A stretch of 63,369 nucleotides of DNA, filler included, from Bonamia ostreae (Eukaryota): assembly GCA_040357525.1 (NCBI GenBank). It is 37 parts of 37 records of this genome, joined end to end, with 100 filler letters (N's around TTAATTAATTAA, not from the genome) between each part and the next. Parts side by side here need not be neighbours in the genome. Positions count along the whole stretch, not along the records: positions 1 to 1,630 come from JBDODL010001534.1; 36 more parts are not named here. One strand, given 5' to 3'. The translations under genes were made by a program, and so were the position numbers. Below the pieces are notes generated by a model. The model did not search any database. It was not told the DNA's origin and saw only the letters and a list, made by a program, of their open reading frames with translations. Below, in pieces: positions 1 to 53,231 of the stretch; the stretch's first letter is position 1, and the number at the start of each line of letters is the position of its first letter.

Positions 1-254
1 AAATTACAAAAATTGCCGTTCGAAAAAATTGTTTTATCGAAAATTACAAAAATTGCCGTTTGGAAAAATTGTTTTATCGAAAATTACAAAAATTGCAATT
101 TCAAATAATTTGTTTTATCGAAAATTACAAAAAAATTGTTTTGCTGAAAATTACAAAAATTGCCGTTCGAAAAAATTGTTTTATCGAAAATTACAAAAAT
201 TGTCGTTCGAAAAAATTTGTTTTATCGAAAATTACAAAAATTGCCGTTCGAAAG
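1..254. repeat. ~40-bp AT-rich minisatellite (AAATTACAAAAATTGCCGTTCGAAAAAATTGTTTTATCGA), ~6.5 copies, probably intronic in the PAQR gene
   Basis: Direct tandem copies at 1, 41, 81 and onward. It follows a likely GTTTT donor at 268 on the minus strand. Confidence 0.95.
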
Positions 255-268
255 AAAAATTTTAAAAC

Positions 269-1201
269 TTTTTCAAATTTTTGAACATTTTCCGGTGCAT
301 TTGCAAATATCTCGAAAAAGTTATTTTTGCAGAGATATTTTTGGAAATGATGCAAATCCGCTTCGACTTTTTTGATGTCGAAATGTTTAATCTTTTCCAG
401 CTTATTCGATATCATCGATAACAAATTTGATATTTCTTTTGAAAAATTAATATCAATTTTTTGTGCCGCTGAAGAAACGAGCTTTTCAACTTCGGCTTTT
501 AATTGTTCGATTTGATCACTAAAATAGCTTTTTTCGTGCATTAACTGATTTGTAAGATTTTTGGCCGTGTAGTAAAGCAGAAAGAGAAAGAAGAAGAAAC
601 CGAGAATGTGCGTCCGTGCAAATTATTAAGGAAAATTGACGTTTTTACAAAAAAATTTTAATTGTTGAAAAGGATATAAATATTGATGGTTTCGTTGTGA
701 AGAGAAAATAAAGTTGAAAGACTATGTCGATACGTTTCGTTGTTTCGATATCCTTTACCATTTTATCTCAAAAAATATATTTAAGCTTTAAAAATTACCC
801 GGACTTTTGTAATTTAATATTCTGTGATCAAAAAATTTTTATTAATGTTTTTATTACTTTAGTATTAATGAATGAATGTTTTTATTAGTTTTTATTACAA
901 AAAATGATTATAATCCATTATTTTAAAAAATATTAATAAAGTTCAAACTTAAAATCTAATACATGGAAATTATTTAATATATATTTTATTTAAAAAATTG
1001 TTCAAATTGTTGCTACAAAAATTGTTGCAATTAAATTCTGTTTTTGTGTGTATATTAAAAGTCCTAATGTTTAAAGCTGTTCGTATTGCAAAGATGTTAA
1101 CCGTTTTTGATATAAGGATTGTCTCTCTTTTGTTCTGGTATCTCGTTAATTTTTCTGAGACGCATTTTGCTCCCATTATTCGGTTTGGTTTTGTCAGTCA
1201 T
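269..1201 (-). CDS. PAQR/adiponectin-receptor (HlyIII) family membrane protein, 5' part; exons 1201-1102, 752-678, 615-~269
   Basis: Spliced translation MTDK...EIPEQKRDNPYIKNGYRNNETYRHSLSTLFSLHNETINIWTHILGFFFFLFLLYY carries the PAQR signature DN.YI..GYR...HNET.NIWTH followed by TM1. Exon phases are consistent. Confidence 0.9.
616..677 (-). other. U12-type (minor spliceosome) AT-AC intron, 62 nt
   Basis: 5' ATATCCTTT, branch TTTTCCTTAAT with the branch A about 11 nt from the 3' end, 3' CAC. Removal restores T|GG (Trp) of NIWTH. There is no AG inside the intron and read-through hits TAA. Confidence 0.9.
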
Positions 1202-5187: not shown

Positions 5188-5674
5188 AATCAGGAAAAAG
5201 AAATCTTCTCCAAATCGGACCGCTTTTTCATCGCCAAAAATTCCACGCTCCACACTCAAATTTTAGTCGATTCTTTGTACAACGTCATTTTCTTCCAATA
5301 CGATCGGTCTCCTTGGTTGCCGACATTAAAAACAGTCCATCAATGTTTAATATATTGATTCTCAAAGACCCGAAAATAATGCCAGCTCTAAAAGTTGACG
5401 AGGGCGCGATTAAACATGTTTTAAGAGGATCAGACATAATGACGCCAGGATTGACAAACGAAGGAGGAGAAATCGCGGTGGATTTGGAGGAGAACAAATA
5501 TTGCGTAAAATTTGCGATTTTAAGGTTGTTAACGCGGAAGGAAAAGAGCACGCTGCGGCGGTAGGAATGACATTGATGTCAACGGAACAAATGCGCAAAG
5601 ATGGGAAAGGCAGAGCGATAAAGAGTTTGCACCATCTCGGCGACAGTTTGTGGGAATTAGATTTGTCTAATTAA
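5188..5674 (+). CDS. MCTS1: MCT-1/Tma20 translation factor (PUA domain), 5' partial; introns 5345-5367 (23 nt) and 5505-5524 (20 nt)
   Basis: Spliced ...PWLPTLKTVHQYPKIMPALKVDEGAIKHVLRGSDIMTPGLT...AEGKEHAAAVG...KGRAIKSLHHLGDSLW. Confidence 0.93.
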
Positions 5675-11989: not shown

Positions 11990-12089
11990 NNNNNNNNNNN
12001 NNNNNNNNNNNNNNNNNNNNNNNNNNNNNNNNNTTAATTAATTAANNNNNNNNNNNNNNNNNNNNNNNNNNNNNNNNNNNNNNNNNNNN

Positions 12090-13712
12090 AATCATGTATG
12101 TTTAAAAGTTTAAAAATAAATAAAAAAATAATTACTGATGATGAAAAAATAAGCAAAGAAATTATGGAATATTTTGTAAACATAGGTATAAAAACATCAA
12201 AAAAAATTATAATAAGTGAAAAATTAATTAATCTAAAAAGGAATATTTTGTTAAAGAATTTAAACTTGAGATCTCAAAAAAATAAAAAATTCAGTATATA
12301 CTTATTTAATAATATAACGTTACAAAAATTAAAAAACTTTATTGATGAGCTAAATCCTAAAAAAGCGTGCGGTATAGACAAAATTCACACAAATTGTTTA
12401 AATTCAGTAAGGAAATTAGTTGTGTTTACTTAAATATATTATACGAAAAAATATTAAAAAATAAATCACCAAAATTATTTAATACAGGGCTTATAATTCC
12501 TATTCCAAAAGTAAATAAAGATATAATTGAACCATATAAAATAAGACCAATCTCAATTTTAAGTATATCAAGTAAAATTTTAGAAAAAATTATATTAAAA
12601 GAACTAAAACAATTCTTGAGGATAAACAAACTTGTATCTACAAACCAACATGGGTTCATTGAAAATAAAAATACATACAATAATATTATCAATCTACATG
12701 AAGAAACATTCGGAACATTTAAAAATAAAATTAACATGATAATTGTTTTCTTAGACTTAGAAAAAGCATATGACACAGTAAATCGTGAATTAATGTATAA
12801 AATTCTAAAAAGTATAGGTTTGGATGATAAAATGTTGAAATATTTTAAAAACATTTTATATTATAGATATGCTCAGGTAAAATTTAATAATAAAATATCT
12901 TGTGAACAAAGTTTCAAATACGGATTACCACAAGGTAGCCAGTTATCTCCAGTATTATTCAATATATACATTAACAGTGTATTGGAAAATATTAGTAATG
13001 TAAAAATAAGAGCATATGCGGATGATATATATTTATTCTAAAAATAAAGATATAAATACTTAATAAATGCAATGAATGCTGCAATAAAAACTTTATCAAA
13101 TAGAACAAATACGTTAAACCTCAAATTTTCAGTAGAAAAAAACAAAAGCTATGTTGATTTCAAACTCTATTAAAAAATGTAAAGAACTAATAATATATAA
13201 CAAAAGATAACAGACTAAAGTTTGATAACCACATTGAAAATACACTTAAAAAATGTCGTAAGAGACTATATATTCTAAAATATTTAACAAATGTAGTTAA
13301 AGGCGTTAAAAAAAGAATATTAATAAACTGTTATAAATCATTCATAAGATCTATAATTGACTACTCGTTTCCAATATTTATCTCGTTAACAAAGTAAAGA
13401 TTAAAAAAACTGGAATGCTTTCAGCATACCGCATTAACATATCTGTTATCTATAAACAAAAGGTCTAGATACCTATGTTTAATAAACTCAATAAATGTTT
13501 TATCAATTGAAAAACGAAATACAAAACTTTTATTTAAATATGTTAATAAATATAAAATTGATAAAGCAAAATATGGATTAGTTGATACTTTTTATAGTAA
13601 AATGTCTCCTTTAACTGTCATATGTGAAAAACTAAAAGTTTTACCTAAAATAAACGAAATTAAAAATGTTAAAAAAGAGCTAATTAAAATTCAATTAAAT
13701 GAATTAAAAAAC
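12090..13712 (+). mobile_element. Decayed non-LTR (LINE) retrotransposon reverse transcriptase
   Basis: KACGIDKI, IRPISIL, NQHGF, FLDLEKAYD, GLPQGSQLSPVLFNIY, YADD and a later YKSFIRSIIDYS. Frameshift near 12390; stops and frameshifts after 13041. Confidence 0.95.
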
Positions 13713-13854
13713 NNNNNNNNNNNNNNNNNNNNNNNNNNNNNNNNNNNNNNNNNNNNTTAATTAATTAANNNNNNNNNNNNNNNNNNNNNNNNNNNNNNNN
13801 NNNNNNNNNNNNAAATAGAACAAATTTTGCAATATTTGACAATTTGATTTGAAG

Positions 13855-19193: not shown

Positions 19194-20538
19194 TTATTTT
19201 CCACTCTTAATTTTCGCCAACTTTTTACAACTTTCCGCCATTTTTGCGAGCTCTTTTTTCTTATCTTCAACTTTTTCCAGAATTTCGATCTTTATTTTTT
19301 CTGGCACCTTCTTTGCTCCATCTGAACAAACAACTGAAGCCTTCTTCTCTAATGCTTCGAGTTGGATTTCAACCTTCTTTTTTCTTTTCGTCATCTTTTC
19401 TAATTGTTTATCGACATCGATCATATTCTTCAAAGTTTAATTTTTATCGTTTTTGAGAAGGCGAAAAATTAATAAAAAGAAGGACAAAAAATCGTTTAAA
19501 ACGACAAAAAATTATAAAAATCAAAAAATTTGAAATTAAGAAGGACCAAACAATCTTAAATAGAAAACAGATAGCTGAAGATGGACAGTTATATCAGAGG
19601 TGACAATATCGTTAGAGCAGTCGCGAAAATTAGTTCCATCGTCAAAATCAGAATCGACCACTTCAACGTTTGCCACCTTTCCCAAGACGGAGATGACTTG
19701 TTCAGCTTCTCTCAATGTTTTAATATTTTTTGCCGTTTTTATGAAAACTTTTTCCAATTGCTATTTTTAGATTTGAAAACTTTGTTTCCGAGCTCGAAAG
19801 CCATTCGAGAAGATCTTATCGATTTGACTATTAGAAAAGCCAATTCCATTTTTTCTTCTGTTTCTCGAAAAACAAATTTTTCGTTCGGAAGCGGAAATTG
19901 GGATAACATGATCGATTCCAAATTTTGACTAAAATTGGTTAATAAATTTAGTCTTTGATAAAGTTCTTCCGTCAAGAATGGCATAAACGGATGGAAAAGT
20001 TTTAATGCTCTTTCTATTACAAAAAAGAGCACTTTCGAGGAATATTTTTTGTTTTCGTTTTCACTGTAAAAAATCGCTTTTGTCAATTCCTTTTCGCATT
20101 TTTTTGTTAATTTGAAAATTTTAAAAAATATTTCGAAAAAATTAAAATTTTAATAAATTAATTCGAAAAATTACAAAAAATTATTTCGATTCAGAAAATT
20201 TCAAAAAAATATTTCGAAAAAAATAATTTCAGAAAATTACAAAAAATTATTCAATTCAGAAAATTTCAAAAAAATATTTCGAAAAAATTAATTTCAAAAA
20301 ATTATTTCAAAAAAATTGGCAAAACCAAATAGACATCACAAAGTTCCTTTAACCAAAAATCATAAATTCGAAGAGCCGCTGCGTTAAGATCGAACGTCGA
20401 GAAATTTTGATTGATTTGTTTTTCTGTGTTGTAAAGTTTTGTGAGAATCCATTTGTCTTCTAAAGACAAAAATTTTACCAAATCTTTTGATAATTTTGTT
20501 TTTAAATGTTCTTTATTTTCTTTTAACTTTTTTGTCAT
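19194..20538 (-). CDS. VARS: Valyl-tRNA synthetase, anticodon-binding and coiled-coil C-terminus; introns include 20090-20325 and 19761-19780
   Basis: DKWIL..., IYDFWLKELCDVYL|ELTK, ALKLFHPFMPFLTEELYQRL, and C-terminal IDVDKQLEK...KVPEKIK. Confidence 0.93.
20120..20312. repeat. Intronic degenerate tandem repeat (AAAAAATATTTCGAAAAAA core, longer unit ~66 bp)
   Basis: The block GAAAATTACAAAAAATTATT...TTCAGAAAATTTCAAAAAAATATTTCGAAAAAA occurs twice inside the ValRS intron. Confidence 0.8.
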
Positions 20539-20793: not shown

Positions 20794-22307
20794 TTAAAAA
20801 ACATGAAAGAACTCAAATAATTTTGTAAAATCGTTTGACAAAAGAAATTTTGAATATTTTAACACATTTTCTTCAAAATCTAGTAAATTTTGTTTTAACA
20901 AATTATCCAAATTTTTTCTTCGTTTCCACCATTGTTGTTTTTGATCGCGAGTTTTCATATTTGGTGCAGATTTAGTCAAATCAATGTTTTCTTTCATAAT
21001 TTGTTCATATCGTTTTAACACATTTTCCATTTCGTTTTCATTTGTGTTTTCGGCAATTGGTATTTCCAAAACGACTTAATATAATTAATAATTTCGTTTT
21101 GTTATTTTTGTAAAAAGTTTAAGTACTTTTAATATAATTAATGATTTCTTTTTGTTATTACTAAACTAATAAAAACGAGGAAAATATTCATCGCTACCAA
21201 TTAAATCAACATCAATTCTTGTAACAGTCAGGAAAAAATTATTTTCGAAACTGTCGTAAAAAACGAGTTCGCATTTTTCGTACTCAAAAAAATAGAGAAC
21301 CAAATTTTTCGGAAAATTTGACAATAATTTTTTAACTTGTCTTTCTTCAAAATCCATTTCAGCCGAAAATTTTATTGAATCGTCTTTGGACAACATGAAC
21401 GAACTCTTAAAGAATTCGTTCAAATAGAACAAATAAGAAAAATATTCTTTTTGGGCCAAATAAATTTTAGCCAAAAATCGAAAAATTTTCGATTTTATTG
21501 TATAAAAATGAATTTGCGACAAATCGCAAAATTGAATCGCTTTTTTTAAAAGTTTAATCGATTCTTCGAAATTTTTCGATTTTTGAAAATTATATTTTGC
21601 GCGATAAAAGCAGTTTTCTGCTTTTGTAAAAACATTTGTCGTTTTTTCATATTTTGTTTTTTGCAACTGTCAATAATTTTAAAAAACGATTTCTAAAATG
21701 TTTTCGACGAACGGAAAATCTTCCGCAAAAATTTTTATTTTTCTGCAAAACAGCGATTTTATTAAAACTGTTTCAAATTTTATCAATTTTGCGATTTTAT
21801 CGCAAATCTTTGAAAAATCAAATTTCGATAATTTTGTTCCAAAAATTTTTTTCATTACATCTTTCAATATAATTTTATCAAATCTTAAAAGTCCGAAAAT
21901 TTTAAGTTGGATTTTAAGCTCGAAATCGATAAACAAATCGATATCATTAATTTTTCCGCAAACAGAAAATTTATTTTTGTTGACATAATTGTTTAAATCT
22001 TCGCTAAAATTCAGTTTTTTTATGTCAATTTGTTTTATTGATAAGTCAAAAATGTTTTTGTATCTGCGACAATTCAGATTTTTCGACAATTCTGACGCTT
22101 TTGTAAAAACGGATATTGCTCTAATATAATCGCCATTTCTTTCGTAAATAAGACCGAGCTGTAAAAACGATTTTAATTGAATTTTTGTAAATTTGAGTTT
22201 TTTGAAGTTTTTTGTTCCGTTTTTAAAGAAAAGATAATTTTCTACAAATTTTTTGTCGTTTGTAGATAAAATTGAGTTTGCGAGCGATAAAGATTTTTTT
22301 AGGCAAT
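20794..22307 (-). CDS. ESPL1: Separase (peptidase C50) internal fragment; 21-nt intron 21667-21687
   Basis: QWWKRRKNLDNLLKQNLLDFEENVL matches the separase WW..R..LD..L...L...E..L motif, preceded by TPR-like helices. Confidence 0.75.
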
Positions 22308-24925: not shown

Positions 24926-26103
24926 AAAACAAATATACAAACGTATTAGCAATCTAGCAAGACAACCTTCAAGAATTTTGAGTTTTATAATTACTTCCGC
25001 AAACACGTCTTTTGCCTTTTAAGCTTGTACGCACTGTATTCATTCACAAATCAAACGAAAACATAACAATGATTTTCAGATAGAAGAAAATATCCAGTTT
25101 GCTGATGTACAGAGATGCAAGTTAAGCTCATGGTTAATGAAAGTTGCAAAATACTAACACTTGTCTCTTAAATTCCGCTTTACAGAGTAGTTAACCAGAG
25201 TGAATTTTATCATTGCAATGGATTTAGACTATTGTAAAGACATTCTTCAATTCGAGCAGAGAGACCACATTTACCTTTATTTTCAACATGGGCAATCGTT
25301 CCGTCATCTTTGTCTGCCTTTTCCTCTTTATCTTTCAGACTCTGTATGCATTCCTCATTAACTCTGTTTTCCTCTATCGGATGAGATTAAGACGTAAATT
25401 GAAAATTGTTAAGATGTTTTCATTATGTATTTATCATATTTTACTAACGTCTATCAGGGTAAATCAAATGACAGATAGTTTTTAAAATAGAGGATATGAT
25501 GATGCAAAATACTTAATAGCATAACTCAAAGCCGTAATGACACAAAAATAGCATTTGAAAACGTTTTATATTATGAAAAAAAATACTGTTGTTATGACTA
25601 TAACATTATAATGACTTCACAACACAGAAGGAGTCATTTTGAGCATAATATTCTGACGTGATACAAAGAATTTACGTTAACCTATGAAGTGTATATCTAA
25701 ATGAACGAGTGAAACAATTTTTCTTTTTCCCTTCTTTCNNNNNNNNNNNNNNNNNNNNNNNNNNNNNNNNNNNNNNNNNNNNTTAATTAATTAANNNNNN
25801 NNNNNNNNNNNNNNNNNNNNNNNNNNNNNNNNNNNNNNGATATGTCGTCTTAGCATTAAGAACTTTTATAATTTAAACGCCCCCACAGAAGACAGTTTCA
25901 GGGAGGGAACACTAATGCTTCTAATCGCTTCAATTTGGGTCTGATATTGTAGATATTATAAAACGTGTTCAATTTGCGCCTGAATTTTGATCTTTCGAAT
26001 GTTCGATGATTAAATAAATTTGAAAACTCAATTTTAAGCTTTGGACATTAAACTATTTTTAGGTTCAAGTTATGAATTTTATTTGTTTCGAACAATTAAA
26101 ATT

Positions 26104-27453
26104 TTACACAGATTCATTCGTTTTTCTGAGACTTCCCTCTTCCAATTCCCAGTTTTCACCATTACCATTATCGTTTGTTGGTACCATTGCATCCAATGAT
26201 TTGTTGTCAGAAAAATCCTTCTTCGCTTCATACATTTCTTCCTTCGCTTCTTCCTCCTCTCTGTGATTCGGCTTCATCACATTTGGACACCACAAAGGTA
26301 TCCACTGGGGGCGCCTAACGCGAATCTGCCTCCAAACGAAAACAAAAACTTTTTTAAAATAAAATAACGCAATGTGCCGTACAACAACACAGCTCCGACA
26401 ATCACCCCTCCTTTGGCAAAAGAGAGCCCCAAAAGAGCTCCCGGGATAACAAAGAAAACGACAAGAATAAACAATATCCCGTAAATGCGGTTTTTGCTAA
26501 CCTGGTAGCCGAGAGCCCTCGAACTTTCCAGTGGCAGTGACCTCATGTACGGAATGGGGTAAAAGACTAAAATACCGAAAAAGTTGAAGAGAAAATGGCA
26601 AATAGCGATTTGCAGTCCAGATGGCTCCCCTTCGCCCAGAGCGGCGAAAAAAGCAGTTATCGTTGTGCCGACATTTGCCCCCAGCGCGACGGGGAACATT
26701 TGTTCGAGCGTGATGACGTTCAAAGCGACCAGAGGTACCATAGACGAAGTGGTGATTCCCGAGGCCTGTATAAGCATGGTCACAAGACATCCCACCAACA
26801 TTCCGACGATGGCGTGTCTCAACAAGGCTTTTTTGATCCAACTCGAAGTTTGTTCTTTGAGACCAAAAGACATGACTTTTGTGAGGAGGAAGAGAGTGGT
26901 CATTATCAGAACGATCGCAATTGCAATGGCTATTCCAGCGGATTGGTTGTCGCTTAATTTGCTTGCTTTTTTATTATTTGGTAACAATAAAATGGTATAA
27001 AAGTTGCTTCTAAGTACTTGCTGAGATTTTAGTAACAATAGAAACTTTTTAAGATACCACCCAAGAGCAAAGTTCTGTTTTTATAGAAACATCTGGGACA
27101 GCCATTTCTGTCATTCGGATTGTAGACATATCCGCTTCGGCAAAGTTCTTTGGCGCAAGCCGTTGCACAGAATTTAAAAAAGTTTTTCGGGTTCAAGTTG
27201 TTTCCTTCCACGCTTACTACATGTAACAAGCAATTATTGACCTCAAAAATCAAATCGACCATTGGCGTTGTCATTGCTTTAATGAAATTGAGTTTTTCTG
27301 CGGTGTTGTCATTGCTATTTTTGGGGAGTGGCAACACAATAAAATAAGAAATCAATTCAAGCCACCCTTTGTTCTTGTAGATCGGAATCAAATTTAATGG
27401 CAGAAATAGCAAAACTGCATAAATATTGAAGAAATCGTGCACTGTTCCACCTT
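26104..27453 (-). CDS. Na+/phosphate cotransporter (SLC34/NptA family), 5' partial; intron near 26967-27045 and 20-nt intron 26349-26368
   Basis: TVHDFFN, IQASGITTSSMVPL, LGANVGTTITA, LQIAICHFLFNFFGILVFYPIP. Confidence 0.93.
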
Positions 27454-32698: not shown

Positions 32699-34312
32699 CT
32701 GAATATCGGAAAACGGCCCTGGCCCTGTCGACCTCACCCAAACGCGTCTCCAAGTTTGCGAAACGAATGCAGATGTGCGGAACGAAAGCGTCCGGCAACA
32801 CTTTCACAGCTTTCTCGTAAATCGAGCGCGTCATGATCGCCCCAAACGCCTCCGTCGCTTTGTTCAAGTACACCAAAAAAGCCTTTTGTAAATTTTGCGA
32901 AACTTCGTATTTGTCTTTTCCGCGAAGCAAGTCGCACATTTTGTCGAAAACAGCCATTGCTTTCTTCGGAGTCCCGTACTTTTCTTCAAAGTTTGCGTAC
33001 TTTACTAAGATATCTTTGGCTTCCACCGCGCGGAAACTTTTCTAAAAATGAAAGCGGTAAACCACAGCGTATTCGAAGATGGACCGAGTTCGGTCGATTT
33101 TGGTTCCGCCATAGCGCGCAACGAATTTTGAAATATAGCGCTCCCAAATCGGTATCGAATGGGGAGTTCTGAAAAGTGCCACTCCTTTTTCGTAGGTTTG
33201 GAACGCTTTTTCGAAGTATTTCTTTTTTTCCAGAAAGGTGGAAAAGTTTAAAATCATCTGGACTGTTGCCACCCGAAGTTCCATCGCCTAAAAAGGTTTA
33301 ATTGTTTCGAAGCAATGTTTTTTGACATTTTTAAATTGTATTTTTCAATTGTTTCGAAACAATATTTTTTGACATTTTTAAATTGCATTTTTTAATTGTT
33401 TCGAAACAATATTTTTTGACATTTTTAAATTGCATTTTTTTTAATTGTTTCGAAACAATATTTTGACATTTACAAAAAATTTGCAAAATTCAAACCGTTT
33501 CATAGACGGCACAAGTGGTTTCGAAAGTGCCTAGATTCTCCTCCAAATCCGCATACAGCGCCCACAGTTTGGGACTGCGATAAACGCGTTTCTGCGCTAC
33601 CAAACGGTCGCCCACGCTTTTCTCCTCAAATCTCGCCTTTTTGTGTGGCAACATCGTCGCCATCTTTATAACTTCCAGCGCCTTCTCGTAGTTCTTGTGC
33701 GATATCTCCGTCTCCGCCCAAGTGCACCACACAGTTGCGAGATGATCTACGTTCTTGAAAGGGTACATGACCGCGCGCTCAAACGTCTTTCTCACACTTT
33801 TAGAGACATTTTTCAAAAATTAATGGCAAACTTGTCCAAGTCGTCAGAATTGTCTTCGTAAAATTTAGCCAGTTTGATCCACAGCATGTGCGGGTTGCCT
33901 CTGCATTTGTCCGGGTTTATCGTTTTTATCGCCATCGCATAGCTTTCGATGACTTTGAGCGGTTCTTCTTGTCTCTGCGATTGAGATCGACATTAAAAAA
34001 ATTGCAAAATTAACTTGGTAGATTTTGGCTCTGGAGAGCCAGCAGCCGACGTTGTGAGGGTTCTGGCGAATCAGAACGCTGTTGACGAGCAGAGGGCGTC
34101 TTTTGAGCAAGTCTTCGTAACGGGCCATTAACAAGTCGACGTTGTCTCCAGCGAAACTGAAGTCGCCTTCGTCTTCGTCGTCGGTCTCTCCGCGCTCGAA
34201 CTTTGCTCTGATCATTATTTCGAAGAATTGGCAGTAAGTATTGAATATGTACTCGAAGTCTCTTACAGTGTTTACAGAGTTTACGCCTTCTTCGTAAACG
34301 TCTCTTGTCTGG
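32699..34312 (-). CDS. SYF1: Pre-mRNA splicing factor SYF1/XAB2 internal fragment; introns 33975-34014, 33797-33831, 33288-33495, 33042-33062, 32883-32903
   Basis: RDVYEEG...VRDF, RRPLLVNSVLIRQNPHNV, KLWALYADLEE, LETRLGEVDRARA. Confidence 0.96.
33300..33471. repeat. 47-bp intronic minisatellite (~3.6 copies), each with the palindrome ATTGTTTCGAAACAAT
   Basis: Units start at 33301, 33348, 33395 and 33444; the first copy has one mismatch in the palindrome. Confidence 0.93.
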
Positions 34313-36160
34313 NNNNNNNNNNNNNNNNNNNNNNNNNNNNNNNNNNNNNNNNNNNNTTAATTAATTAANNNNNNNNNNNNNNNNNNNNNNNNNNNNNNNN
34401 NNNNNNNNNNNNTAACGATTAGTATGAAGCACGCCTTACAACATTGACCCAATGCTAGGTTGTATCGGTAAAGCAGATCATATATGTTACATCACAATAT
34501 ACATGCATGAGGTCGAATGAACTATTTTCATACAAAATGAATATATTGGGTTTAATTTCTCAATGGCGACCTATGAAGCATGGAGTGGGGATGAGGTAAT
34601 TTGACAGTATAGTAGAACCCCCTCCCTAGTTTACTATAAGTAATAAACTAATTTATAGAACCTTTTTATTTATTTACCAACATCCTCACATTTTCTTACT
34701 AAAACATGCACCTTTGTATATACAATAATTAAAAATAGACATGGCCAATTTACATACTTTCGAAATGATTTATGTTATGTCCGGATGGACGGGAAAGCTT
34801 TAATCTATAGCAAATTATTCGGGTTATGATCTGTATACATGGGGAATGTTTGCTACAATAAATATGTATAAACTTCCCAAGGGGATATATAAAGTGAAAG
34901 ATTCAGGGAGAAAGTTTAGTATATAGCAAATATCCCGAAGGGTTGCATGTACTACACAATAACCAATCCGAGGGAAGGTCTGCTGTACGGAAGGTTTGAC
35001 GCACAAAATCGGTATGTAGAGACTCGAGGTATATAATTTCATATACTCTCAAAAACAGAAAGATTTTTTTATGTAAACGTTTTTAATCAATTTGATTACA
35101 TTCTGATAAATAAAACAGTGATGCGATCTTTCTTTCAAGTGTGTTCATACGCATTGGTTAGCCAATTTCAAAAGTTATATTAATCTTCAGTTTAAGTTAG
35201 TAAGAGTGTCAAGAAAAAACAAACCAAACACCTGAATGAATGTACATGTTAATATTTGTAATTATATATGTATCATGCTGGTTATGTATATCAAAGATCT
35301 ACAATGCATATACAGTATGTCTATATGATTTGATATTTCCTATATGAAATTACATGTGTGTAATTATATTTCATACTTTCAAAGGGATCTCCAATGAAAT
35401 GTCTGCATAGATGCCTCGACATTTTGCCAGATGTTAGGTGTCGATCTCCAAGAGAATGCTTGAATATCTACTCGCAAACAGAAATGTCTAATGGTATTTG
35501 TTATATTTTACCTCTAAAATGAGACTTTTACTCACCATAGACAGGTATTTAATTGACCTTTCTGACTAAAGATTGGTCAGTCGTCTGTTGTTCTTTGCGT
35601 GTCCTGAAAGTTTATGAATCTGTATTACTGTATGATTAAAACAACTCAGATGAGCTTGTATCCATTGAGCCTCTTGTGTTGTTTGATATCTTTGTGGGTT
35701 TACTTTACATAAACTCATATAACATTATTACACATGCACTTGGAATCTCCATCTAGCCCCTGTATCTTAATATAAATGCTTCCTAGCTTCTCTTTGAAGT
35801 GGGAGGACCACAATACAAGGATCTGCTTAGTTCACGAATATATACATTGTAAATCAGAACTGATAGTTTAACAAACATTTTAAAAAATGATTTGATTCGT
35901 TGTATACGCTGAAAAAGAAACAATTCAAAATATAGAATTCTGCAAATTTCAGACTACTGTTTCATTCAAAAGCCAAACTTTGTCAGAAATCTTCCTTATT
36001 TAATGAATATTCATGTTTGTTCAATCNNNNNNNNNNNNNNNNNNNNNNNNNNNNNNNNNNNNNNNNNNNNTTAATTAATTAANNNNNNNNNNNNNNNNNN
36101 NNNNNNNNNNNNNNNNNNNNNNNNNNTCGCTTTTTGTGATACATTACAACTAAAACTTAG

Positions 36161-37595
36161 CATCGCCGGGTGAATTTTCGAACATTGTCGACGAAAAATC
36201 AAATCCGTCTCTGGCAATGGATCAACGCCATTTATTCTTGAGATTGAAAGAAAATGCCCAAATTTTTAAAATGAGATCAAATATCATTCGCTGTTTCAGA
36301 GATGTCTTTTACTAAACTTTGATATCAACAAATTTTAATTTTTGTCGAGAAAAAATCAAATTTTAAGTAATAAACCAAATTTCAATTAAAGTGGTTATTC
36401 GATCAAGACTTTACGGAAGTGACTCCTCCAACTTTGGTTCAAACACAAGTTGAAGGGGGATCGACTTTATTCCACGTTGATTATTTTGGCAGTCCAGCTT
36501 TTCTGACGCAATCGTCTCAACTATATCTCGAAACGTGCATCGCTTCGCTCGGAAACGTTTTCTGTGTCGTCCCCTCTTATCGAGCCGAAAAAACAAGGAC
36601 TCGCCGACACGTCTGTGAGTACACACATTGTTTGGCCTATTTTAATCAGATTTTAATTCAAAATATCAAAAATTTGCAATTTTTAAAACTTTAATTCGAC
36701 TTAGACGAAGCAGAACTGCCGTTTATAAAATTTGACGATTTGTTACAACATCTTGAAGATATTGTTGTTTCCGTATGCGAACTGATTGTTTCGCGACATG
36801 GTGATCTTCTGAAGAGATTTAATCCGTCCTTCGTTTTTATAAACAATTTGAAATTGTAAATTTTTTTGGTTAAAAACGACATTTTATCGACATAAATTTT
36901 GCGATTAAAAACGAAAAATGGCAATTTTTAATCTAAATCAATTTTGCGATTAAAACAAAAAAAAGAAAGCCCCAAAAAGACCATTCAAAAGAATGAACCA
37001 CTCTGAAGCCATTCAATTCTGCCGCGAACACCAAATATACAAAGACCCGAACACACGTGAGCACTTCGAACCCGGAGACGACATTCCCGAAGCGCCGGAA
37101 AGACAAATGATCGAAATAATCGGAGAACCGGTTTTGCTCTGCCGTTTTCCAGCAAAAATGAAGCCGTTCTATATGCAGCGCTGCCCTGAAGATAACGACG
37201 CAACGGAGAGCGTTGATTTATTGATGCCAGGCGTAGGCGAAGTGGTGGGCGGTTCGATGAGAGAAACCAATTACGAACGACTGAAAAAGGGTTTTGAAGA
37301 CAAAGATATCGATCCTGAAAATTATTATTGGTATCTTGATTTGGTTTTTTGATTTGGTATCTTGAAAAAATAGCTATTTTTAATGATTTTTGGCGAAACG
37401 CTTTTTGCGAGTTTATAAAAAATTTCTAACTGAGCGATTTTTAAAAATATGACTAATTTTCAGCGCAAATATGGAACGGTTTCTCATGGCGGATATGGAC
37501 TTGGAATAGAAAGATTTTTGTGCTGGGTGCTGAACAGAGATCACATAAGAGATGTTTGTCTCTACCCAAGATTTACAAACAGATGCAAACCGTAA
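36161..37595 (+). CDS. NARS: Cytosolic asparaginyl-tRNA synthetase, 5' partial, four GT-AG introns
   Basis: [76 protein letters not shown]. Confidence 0.97.
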
Positions 37596-53131: not shown

Positions 53132-53231
53132 NNNNNNNNNNNNNNNNNNNNNNNNNNNNNNNNNNNNNNNNNNNNTTAATTAATTAANNNNNNNNNNNNN
53201 NNNNNNNNNNNNNNNNNNNNNNNNNNNNNNN

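Follow-up and report, generated by a model that had tools for sequence, protein, structure and literature searches.

A probable U12-type AT-AC intron in a PAQR-like gene of Bonamia ostreae, a parasite of oysters

The PAQR-like gene and its organism of origin

Positions 1 to 1201 of the window (the whole stretch of DNA that was analysed, 63,369 nucleotides) hold a minisatellite and a minus-strand gene with two introns. The gene was traced from translation and from contigs of a sequencing run, X4, which is described with the splicing results below. Its features are as follows:

1102..1201, minus strand: coding part of exon 1, with the ATG at 1201..1199, encoding MTDKTKPNNGSKMRLRKINEIPEQKRDNPYIKN and the first base of a Gly codon (translation)
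753..1101, minus strand: intron 1, 349 nt, GT..AG, donor GTTAAC, phase 1, AT-rich (X4 record 4)
678..752, minus strand: exon 2, 75 nt, encoding (G)YRNNETYRHSLSTLFSLHNETINI and the first base (T at 678) of a Trp codon (two X4 joints)
616..677, minus strand: probable U12-type AT-AC intron, 62 nt, phase 1, inside the Trp codon T|GG (sequence and X4 contig record 2)
290..615, minus strand: exon 3, at least this span, encoding THILG, one hydrophobic stretch and a long hydrophilic stretch (X4 record 2)
1..258, no strand assigned: minisatellite with a 40-nt unit, at least 6 copies and 88-92% matches; the repeat runs off the window start

The joint at intron 1 was given as 751/1101 with a cut movable by 1, and GT..AG placement sets the intron at 1101..753 (minus). 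Record 4 of X4 spans 1101-1300 and extends further upstream. At the other end of the gene, the exon 3 frame is open as far as 191 (ORF 191..622), and X4 record 2 extends 1187 nt past position 290, which would leave space for a seven-helix core. The remainder of the gene falls outside the window, past its first position, and with it any such core, which in the PAQR/HlyIII family carries the zinc motifs S-x3-H...D and H-x3-H. A GTTTTA at 268..263 (minus) is a possible next donor of exon 3, in phase 0; if it is a donor, the 40-nt minisatellite at 1-258 would be intronic. The minisatellite lies directly downstream of exon 3, whose frame stays open for about 2 units into the repeat, and it may be an intron, coding sequence, or the 3' part or 3' UTR of the PAQR-like gene.

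After removal of the two introns, the translation reads DNPYIKNG|YR where intron 1 was and ETINI-W-TH where the AT-AC intron was, followed by the hydrophobic stretch. The motifs DNPYI..GYR (N.YI..GYR) and E-x2-N-x3-H before TM1 are hallmarks of the PAQR/HlyIII family (PF03006), which includes the adiponectin and progestin receptors. From these motifs the gene is a candidate for a PAQR-like membrane protein: DNPYI..GYR and an ETINIWTH placed just before a hydrophobic helix are shared with the family, whereas a hydrophilic stretch of 115 residues after the first helix, without relatives, sets the Bonamia protein apart.

Searches with the separate pieces of the protein were negative. A Pfam scan of the exon pieces taken singly, which are short (33, 34 and 140 aa), returned no family for the first two and noise at E>=0.035 for the third. 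The 34-aa piece, likewise a short query, had no match in the PDB. Among longer proteins, 749 candidates shared words with the exon 3 product, none of them at E<=0.01, and there were no matches among 1.84 billion representative proteins. No protein of the published B. ostreae annotation includes exon 3. At 191-613 (minus) the hydrophilic stretch, some 115 residues long, is without relatives in both protein sets, yet the X4 contig that carries it has a high word depth.

The species of origin was assessed from a second gene in the window. A stop-to-stop ORF at 36954..37352 is a piece of a class II aminoacyl-tRNA synthetase, and its top relative among longer proteins, with 98% identity over the ORF, was P0001 ("hypothetical protein MHBO_003143, partial [Bonamia ostreae]"). 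All 341 of the 341 residues of P0001, an asparaginyl-tRNA synthetase (AsnRS) fragment, mapped without mismatch to 36154..37592 (plus strand) across four GT-AG introns. The further AsnRS matches listed had 51-68% identity and belonged to scattered eukaryotes; those of molluscs stood at 62-63%. The G+C content of the window is 25-36%; for the B. ostreae assembly, the available text of Hiltunen Thorén et al. 2024 (PMC11069148) gives 33.3% G+C, a size of 12.24 Mb and an N50 of 1417 bp. The P0001 entry sits on a contig of 1613 bp and lies in full within 36154..37592, which indicates for the window an assembly far more contiguous than the published one.

The exact mapping of P0001 together with the G+C content shows that the contig is from Bonamia ostreae (Rhizaria, Ascetosporea, Haplosporida) and not from the host, which upholds an earlier assignment, made from the sequence without database searches (hereafter the sequence-only reading), to a protist rather than an animal host. 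An alternative is that the contig comes from the host, or from another eukaryote already known for minor introns. Contaminants are possible within the NCBI B. ostreae assembly, and the main DNA runs are coded as organism A and X4 as organism B. A foreign origin is nevertheless very unlikely in view of the 341-residue match, the distance to mollusc AsnRS, the base composition, and the GTTT donors and 20-40-nt introns of the window.

The 62-nt AT-AC intron and its removal

Minor-class introns are defined by their donor and branch motifs, and a short spacing from branch to 3' end without a pyrimidine tract is typical of them. Their donor consensus is RTATCCTTT; the donor is read by U11 and U6atac and the branch motif by U12. 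Three signals were located in the 62-nt insert of the PAQR-like gene:

668..677, minus strand: 5' splice site ATATCCTTTT, which fits the minor donor consensus RTATCCTTT
625..633, minus strand: branch-site motif TTCCTTAAT, 10-18 nt before the intron end (sequence)
616..617, minus strand: 3' terminal AC of the 62-nt intron (sequence and joint ends in the contig)

On the minus strand the AT of the intron start is at 677-676 and the AC of the intron end at 617-616, so that the insert opens with ATATCCTTTT and closes with TTTTCCTTAATAATTTGCAC. Its termini are AT..AC, one of the two pairs (with GT..AG) expected of a U12-type intron. The extended minor donor [A/G]TATCCTTT begins at the first intron base, within the ATATCCTTTT at 677..668, and a match to the branch motif TTCCTTRAY lies near the 3' splice site, within the usual range of about 8-20 nt. 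The two A residues of TTCCTTAAT are 11-12 nt from the last intron base; AATTTGCAC follows, with no pyrimidine tract.

The upstream exon ends on the minus strand with ...CAC AAC GAA ACC ATC AAT ATT T, and the sequence after the insert is GG ACG CAC ATT CTC GGT. Excision of 677..616 restores the Trp codon T|GG and gives HNETINI-W-THILG. The length of the insert, 62, is no multiple of 3; direct reading found no AG within it; and read-through would yield ...HNETINIYILFNN, with a TAA in frame after seven codons. The sequence-only reading had described such an insert, without AG, with an in-frame TAA and splitting the Trp of this motif. The anatomy, the frame break and the positions were identical on re-reading, and that description was therefore exact, coordinates included.

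Neither the donor nor the branch motif is enriched singly in the window. RTATCCTT occurred 6 times against 3.94 expected in the 63 kb (6 or more in 20 of 100 shuffles), and TTCCTTAAY occurred 3 times against 2.35 expected (3 or more in 39/100 shuffles). The combined pattern, TATCCTT-N20-50-TCCTTRAY-N6-14-A[C/G], had a single site in 63 kb on both strands, listed twice for its two possible ends, and no match in any of 100 dinucleotide shuffles. The looser donor [AG]TATCC[TC] had 22 sites on both strands, and only the one at 677 had a branch motif just before AC or AG. The paired motifs coincide with the exact break and resumption of the reading frame. No second RTATCCTT intron was found on either strand of the 63-kb window, and the AT-AC case is a sample of one.

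Contigs of runs X1, X4, X6 and X8 were aligned over positions 290-1300; the limit of 290 was chosen to avoid the minisatellite. Run X4 is RNA by guess (it is labelled "RNA?" and may be DNA), and no run is recorded as RNA. X4 belongs to a separate study and carries an organism label (B) unlike that of the DNA runs (A). X1 and X6 are coded as different samples and studies.

Record 2 of X4 (1589 nt, word depth 2163) was collinear with 290-615 and then with 678-753: exactly 616..677 was skipped. The 615/678 joint had plus-strand ends GT..AT, equivalent to AT..AC on the minus strand; its shorter side was 76 nt and its position was unambiguous. The inside of the 62-nt insert was covered by no X4 contig, and one X4 contig joined across it. 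The neighbouring GT-AG intron was also removed in this run: record 4 (word depth 4516) joined exon 1 to exon 2 with the 349-nt intron gone, and record 3 (word depth 43) retained it. A contig of X1 (labelled "DNA?") covered the whole 290-1300 stretch unspliced, with both introns kept. From X6 (kind not given) came one 151-nt contig, 519-669, that crossed 616 unspliced; X6 and X8, with small shares only, gave one short unspliced contig each. Exact joining across 616..677, as foreseen in the sequence-only reading, was thus borne out by the 615|678 joint in a run that is RNA by guess.

These contigs bear on two alternatives. If the paired motifs had arisen by chance and the frame break by assembly error, the absence of enrichment of each motif taken singly would be as observed. 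The combined pattern, however, has one site in the window and none in 100 shuffles, and the same 62 nt are present in the contigs of both X1 and X6 and are precisely those skipped by X4, which belongs to a third study; this account is already contradicted and is scarcely credible. The second alternative holds that the joined form in X4 is DNA, from a retrocopy or a deletion allele, rather than spliced RNA, and it draws on the guessed identity of X4 and the lack of any run recorded as RNA. Two introns were cut at their exact GT..AG and AT..AC ends, the unspliced form of intron 1 was in the minority (depth 43 vs 4516), and X1 and X6 were only unspliced. X4 therefore has the pattern of a transcriptome, which makes a retrocopy or deletion allele highly improbable. 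Since the contigs give neither levels nor strand, our claim is limited to the presence of the joined form.

With both signals at the right spacing and exact removal in the X4 contig, the identification of the insert as a U12-type AT-AC intron has held up. The segment 677..616 is very probably a genuine intron of this class, the second intron of the PAQR-like gene, in the haplosporidian oyster parasite B. ostreae.

Major introns of the window

Five other introns of the window were confirmed by contig or protein alignment:

PAQR-like gene, intron 1: 349 nt, donor GTTAAC (X4 contig)
AsnRS gene, plus strand: 88 nt, donor GTCTTT (P0001 mapping)
AsnRS gene, plus strand: 75 nt, donor GTTTGG (P0001 mapping)
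AsnRS gene, plus strand: 133 nt, donor GTTTTT (P0001 mapping)
AsnRS gene, plus strand: 120 nt, donor GTTTTT (P0001 mapping)

All five introns of 75-349 nt end in AG. As these confirmed introns are GT..AG with unlike donors, the AT-AC intron is no variant of the local major consensus.

Shorter introns, most of them candidates, were identified in a SYF1/XAB2 gene and by joining of ORFs:

33042..33062, minus strand: tiny GT..AG intron, 21 nt, SYF1/XAB2 gene (collinear with human SYF1)
33975-34014, minus strand: candidate 40-nt intron, SYF1 gene (continuous SYF1-like translation)
33797-33831, minus strand: candidate 35-nt intron, SYF1 gene (continuous SYF1-like translation)
21667-21687, 19761-19780, 55670-55689 and 27017-27036, minus strand: candidate tiny introns with GTTT-type donors (ORF joining)
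5345-5367, plus strand: candidate tiny intron with a GTTT-type donor (ORF joining)

The pieces flanking 33062..33042 aligned to chain 5mqf_M of human SYF1 at residues 540-583 (query 2-45 of 46) and 592-690 (query 8-113), so that the junction sits between residues 584 and 585 of the chain and no residue is lost or gained. A scan that joined ORFs across a GTTT donor and an [A/T]AG acceptor gave 10 candidates of 19-24 nt, against 1 at 14-18 nt and 2 at 25-30 nt; a control pattern gave 2 candidates of 19-24 nt. The scan has many false positives, and we relied only on its length profile and on the one case checked by homology. From these, the genome seems to have a class of 20-23-nt GT..AG introns. 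Lengths of about 20 nt are among the shortest known for spliceosomal introns. We found no mention of tiny introns in the available text of the B. ostreae genome paper (PMC11069148).

The sequence-only reading had put the major introns at about 20 nt. That length fits the 21-nt SYF1 intron and the 19-24-nt candidates, and does not fit the five confirmed introns of 75-349 nt. Its description of the donors as of GTTTT type agrees with the GTTT donors confirmed in the AsnRS introns.

The window also contains 72 runs of exactly 44 N, paired 12 bases apart with a period of about 1.7 kb (e.g. 1631-1674 and 1687-1730). These runs are masking and have no biological meaning; they interrupt several ORFs, including those of AsnRS and SYF1.

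A possible minor spliceosome in Bonamia and Rhizaria

The minor spliceosome of animals and plants consists of U11, U12, U4atac, U6atac and U5. By the rules generally held for canonical U12-type AT-AC introns of animals and plants, the Bonamia intron resembles them in its AT..AC termini, its ATATCCTTT donor, its TTCCTTAAY 11-12 nt from the 3' end, the lack of a pyrimidine tract and its non-zero phase. It differs from them in being only 62 nt long and in belonging to a rhizarian parasite whose other introns are about 20-349 nt.

The donor, the branch motif and their spacing are not common to the local major introns, which makes a minor spliceosome the most economical reading, and B. ostreae likely has working U11/U12/U4atac/U6atac machinery. 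In the splicing that we propose, the rigid ATATCCTTT donor would be bound first by U11 and next by U6atac, as is established for minor splicing. TTCCTTAAT would pair with U12 in such a way that one of the two A's, at 11-12 nt before the intron end, bulges out. Two transesterifications would then join ...AATATTT to GGACGCAC..., by which the Trp codon and the frame would be restored.

Rfam models run over the 63-kb window gave no matches at the gathering score, a result that is uninformative either way at such a sample size; a cutoff relaxed to E<=5 brought up 3 weak matches to unrelated models (snoRNA, miRNA and enterobacterial sRNA). Splicing of the AT-AC intron by the major (U2-type) spliceosome, in an organism without a minor one, would accord with the lack of any minor component in this search, limited as it was to the 63-kb window. 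To our knowledge, U2-type AT-AC introns share the AT..AC termini and differ in lacking the extended donor and the U12 branch motif: they have neither the ATATCCTTT donor nor a TTCCTTAAY 10-15 nt from the 3' end. The Bonamia intron has both in perfect position, the local major donors are GTTTTT-like, and it is unlikely that 17 consensus bases would be retained without any reader. Support for U2-type splicing comes from Olthof et al. [quoted passage not shown] 2.1% minor-like in Reticulomyxa), and some lineages with minor-like introns and no detectable minor snRNAs. On balance we consider splicing by the major spliceosome quite unlikely, and minor splicing remains the preferred reading.

In the text available, neither of two recent pan-eukaryotic surveys, Olthof et al. 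2024 and Larue & Roy 2023, names minor machinery for Rhizaria. The main text of Larue & Roy 2023 (PMC10639083) does not mention Rhizaria, Plasmodiophora, Bonamia, Ascetosporea or Endomyxa, and its clade table has Streptophyta, Fungi, Metazoa, Stramenopiles, Evosea and Discosea. In the available text of Hiltunen Thorén et al. 2024 (PMC11069148), B. ostreae has canonical introns, on average 2 per mRNA, and the term "U12" appears nowhere. The literature covered, which took in few subscription journals and no supplementary species tables, yielded no report of U12-type or minor splicing in Bonamia, Ascetosporea or Rhizaria. We put at about an even chance the wider claim that B. ostreae has a complete working minor spliceosome, which would give Rhizaria its first U12-type intron with transcript support and, by extension, its first minor spliceosome.

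The closest precedent in the available texts is Blastocystis, like Bonamia a reduced parasitic SAR protist with U12-type introns. In the texts available, Gentekaki et al. 2017 (PMC5608401) give it 346 of these, the full set of 4 minor snRNAs and 7 of the specific proteins, and Larue & Roy 2023 (PMC10639083) find 77% of its U12-type introns (196/253) to be AT-AC. Blastocystis belongs to the Stramenopila and Bonamia to the Rhizaria; in the former both snRNAs and proteins have been found, whereas in the latter the class is known from one intron.

If the claim is true, a minor spliceosome has persisted in a reduced parasite that lives inside cells and has major introns as short as 20-21 nt, and minor splicing has outlived streamlining in a lineage whose relatives, the mikrocytids, lost most introns. 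A textbook AT-AC intron, precisely spliced in a haplosporidian, would add a new supergroup branch to the map of minor splicing, and such a map of survival gives a footing for the question of why minor splicing is retained at all. With major introns of about 20 nt and a minor intron of 62 nt in one parasite, the minimal length and the recognition of each class become directly testable. Gene callers restricted to GT-AG introns would break the PAQR-like gene and similar ones.

Two further features of the window were recorded. At 12038-13760 (plus strand), a reverse-transcriptase ORF (12361-13041; Pfam RVT_1, E=4.7e-31, residues 49-226) with adjoining open frames looks like a non-LTR retroelement copy in a compact genome. 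Local G+C-rich coding stretches, with long ORFs open in several frames together, occur at 26100-27100 (both strands) and 53180-53750; the genes concerned code for a Na/Pi cotransporter (Pfam Na_Pi_cotrans, E=2.5e-14) and for a protein that has an RRM-like motif, GFGFV, and a tail rich in N/Q/Y/G.
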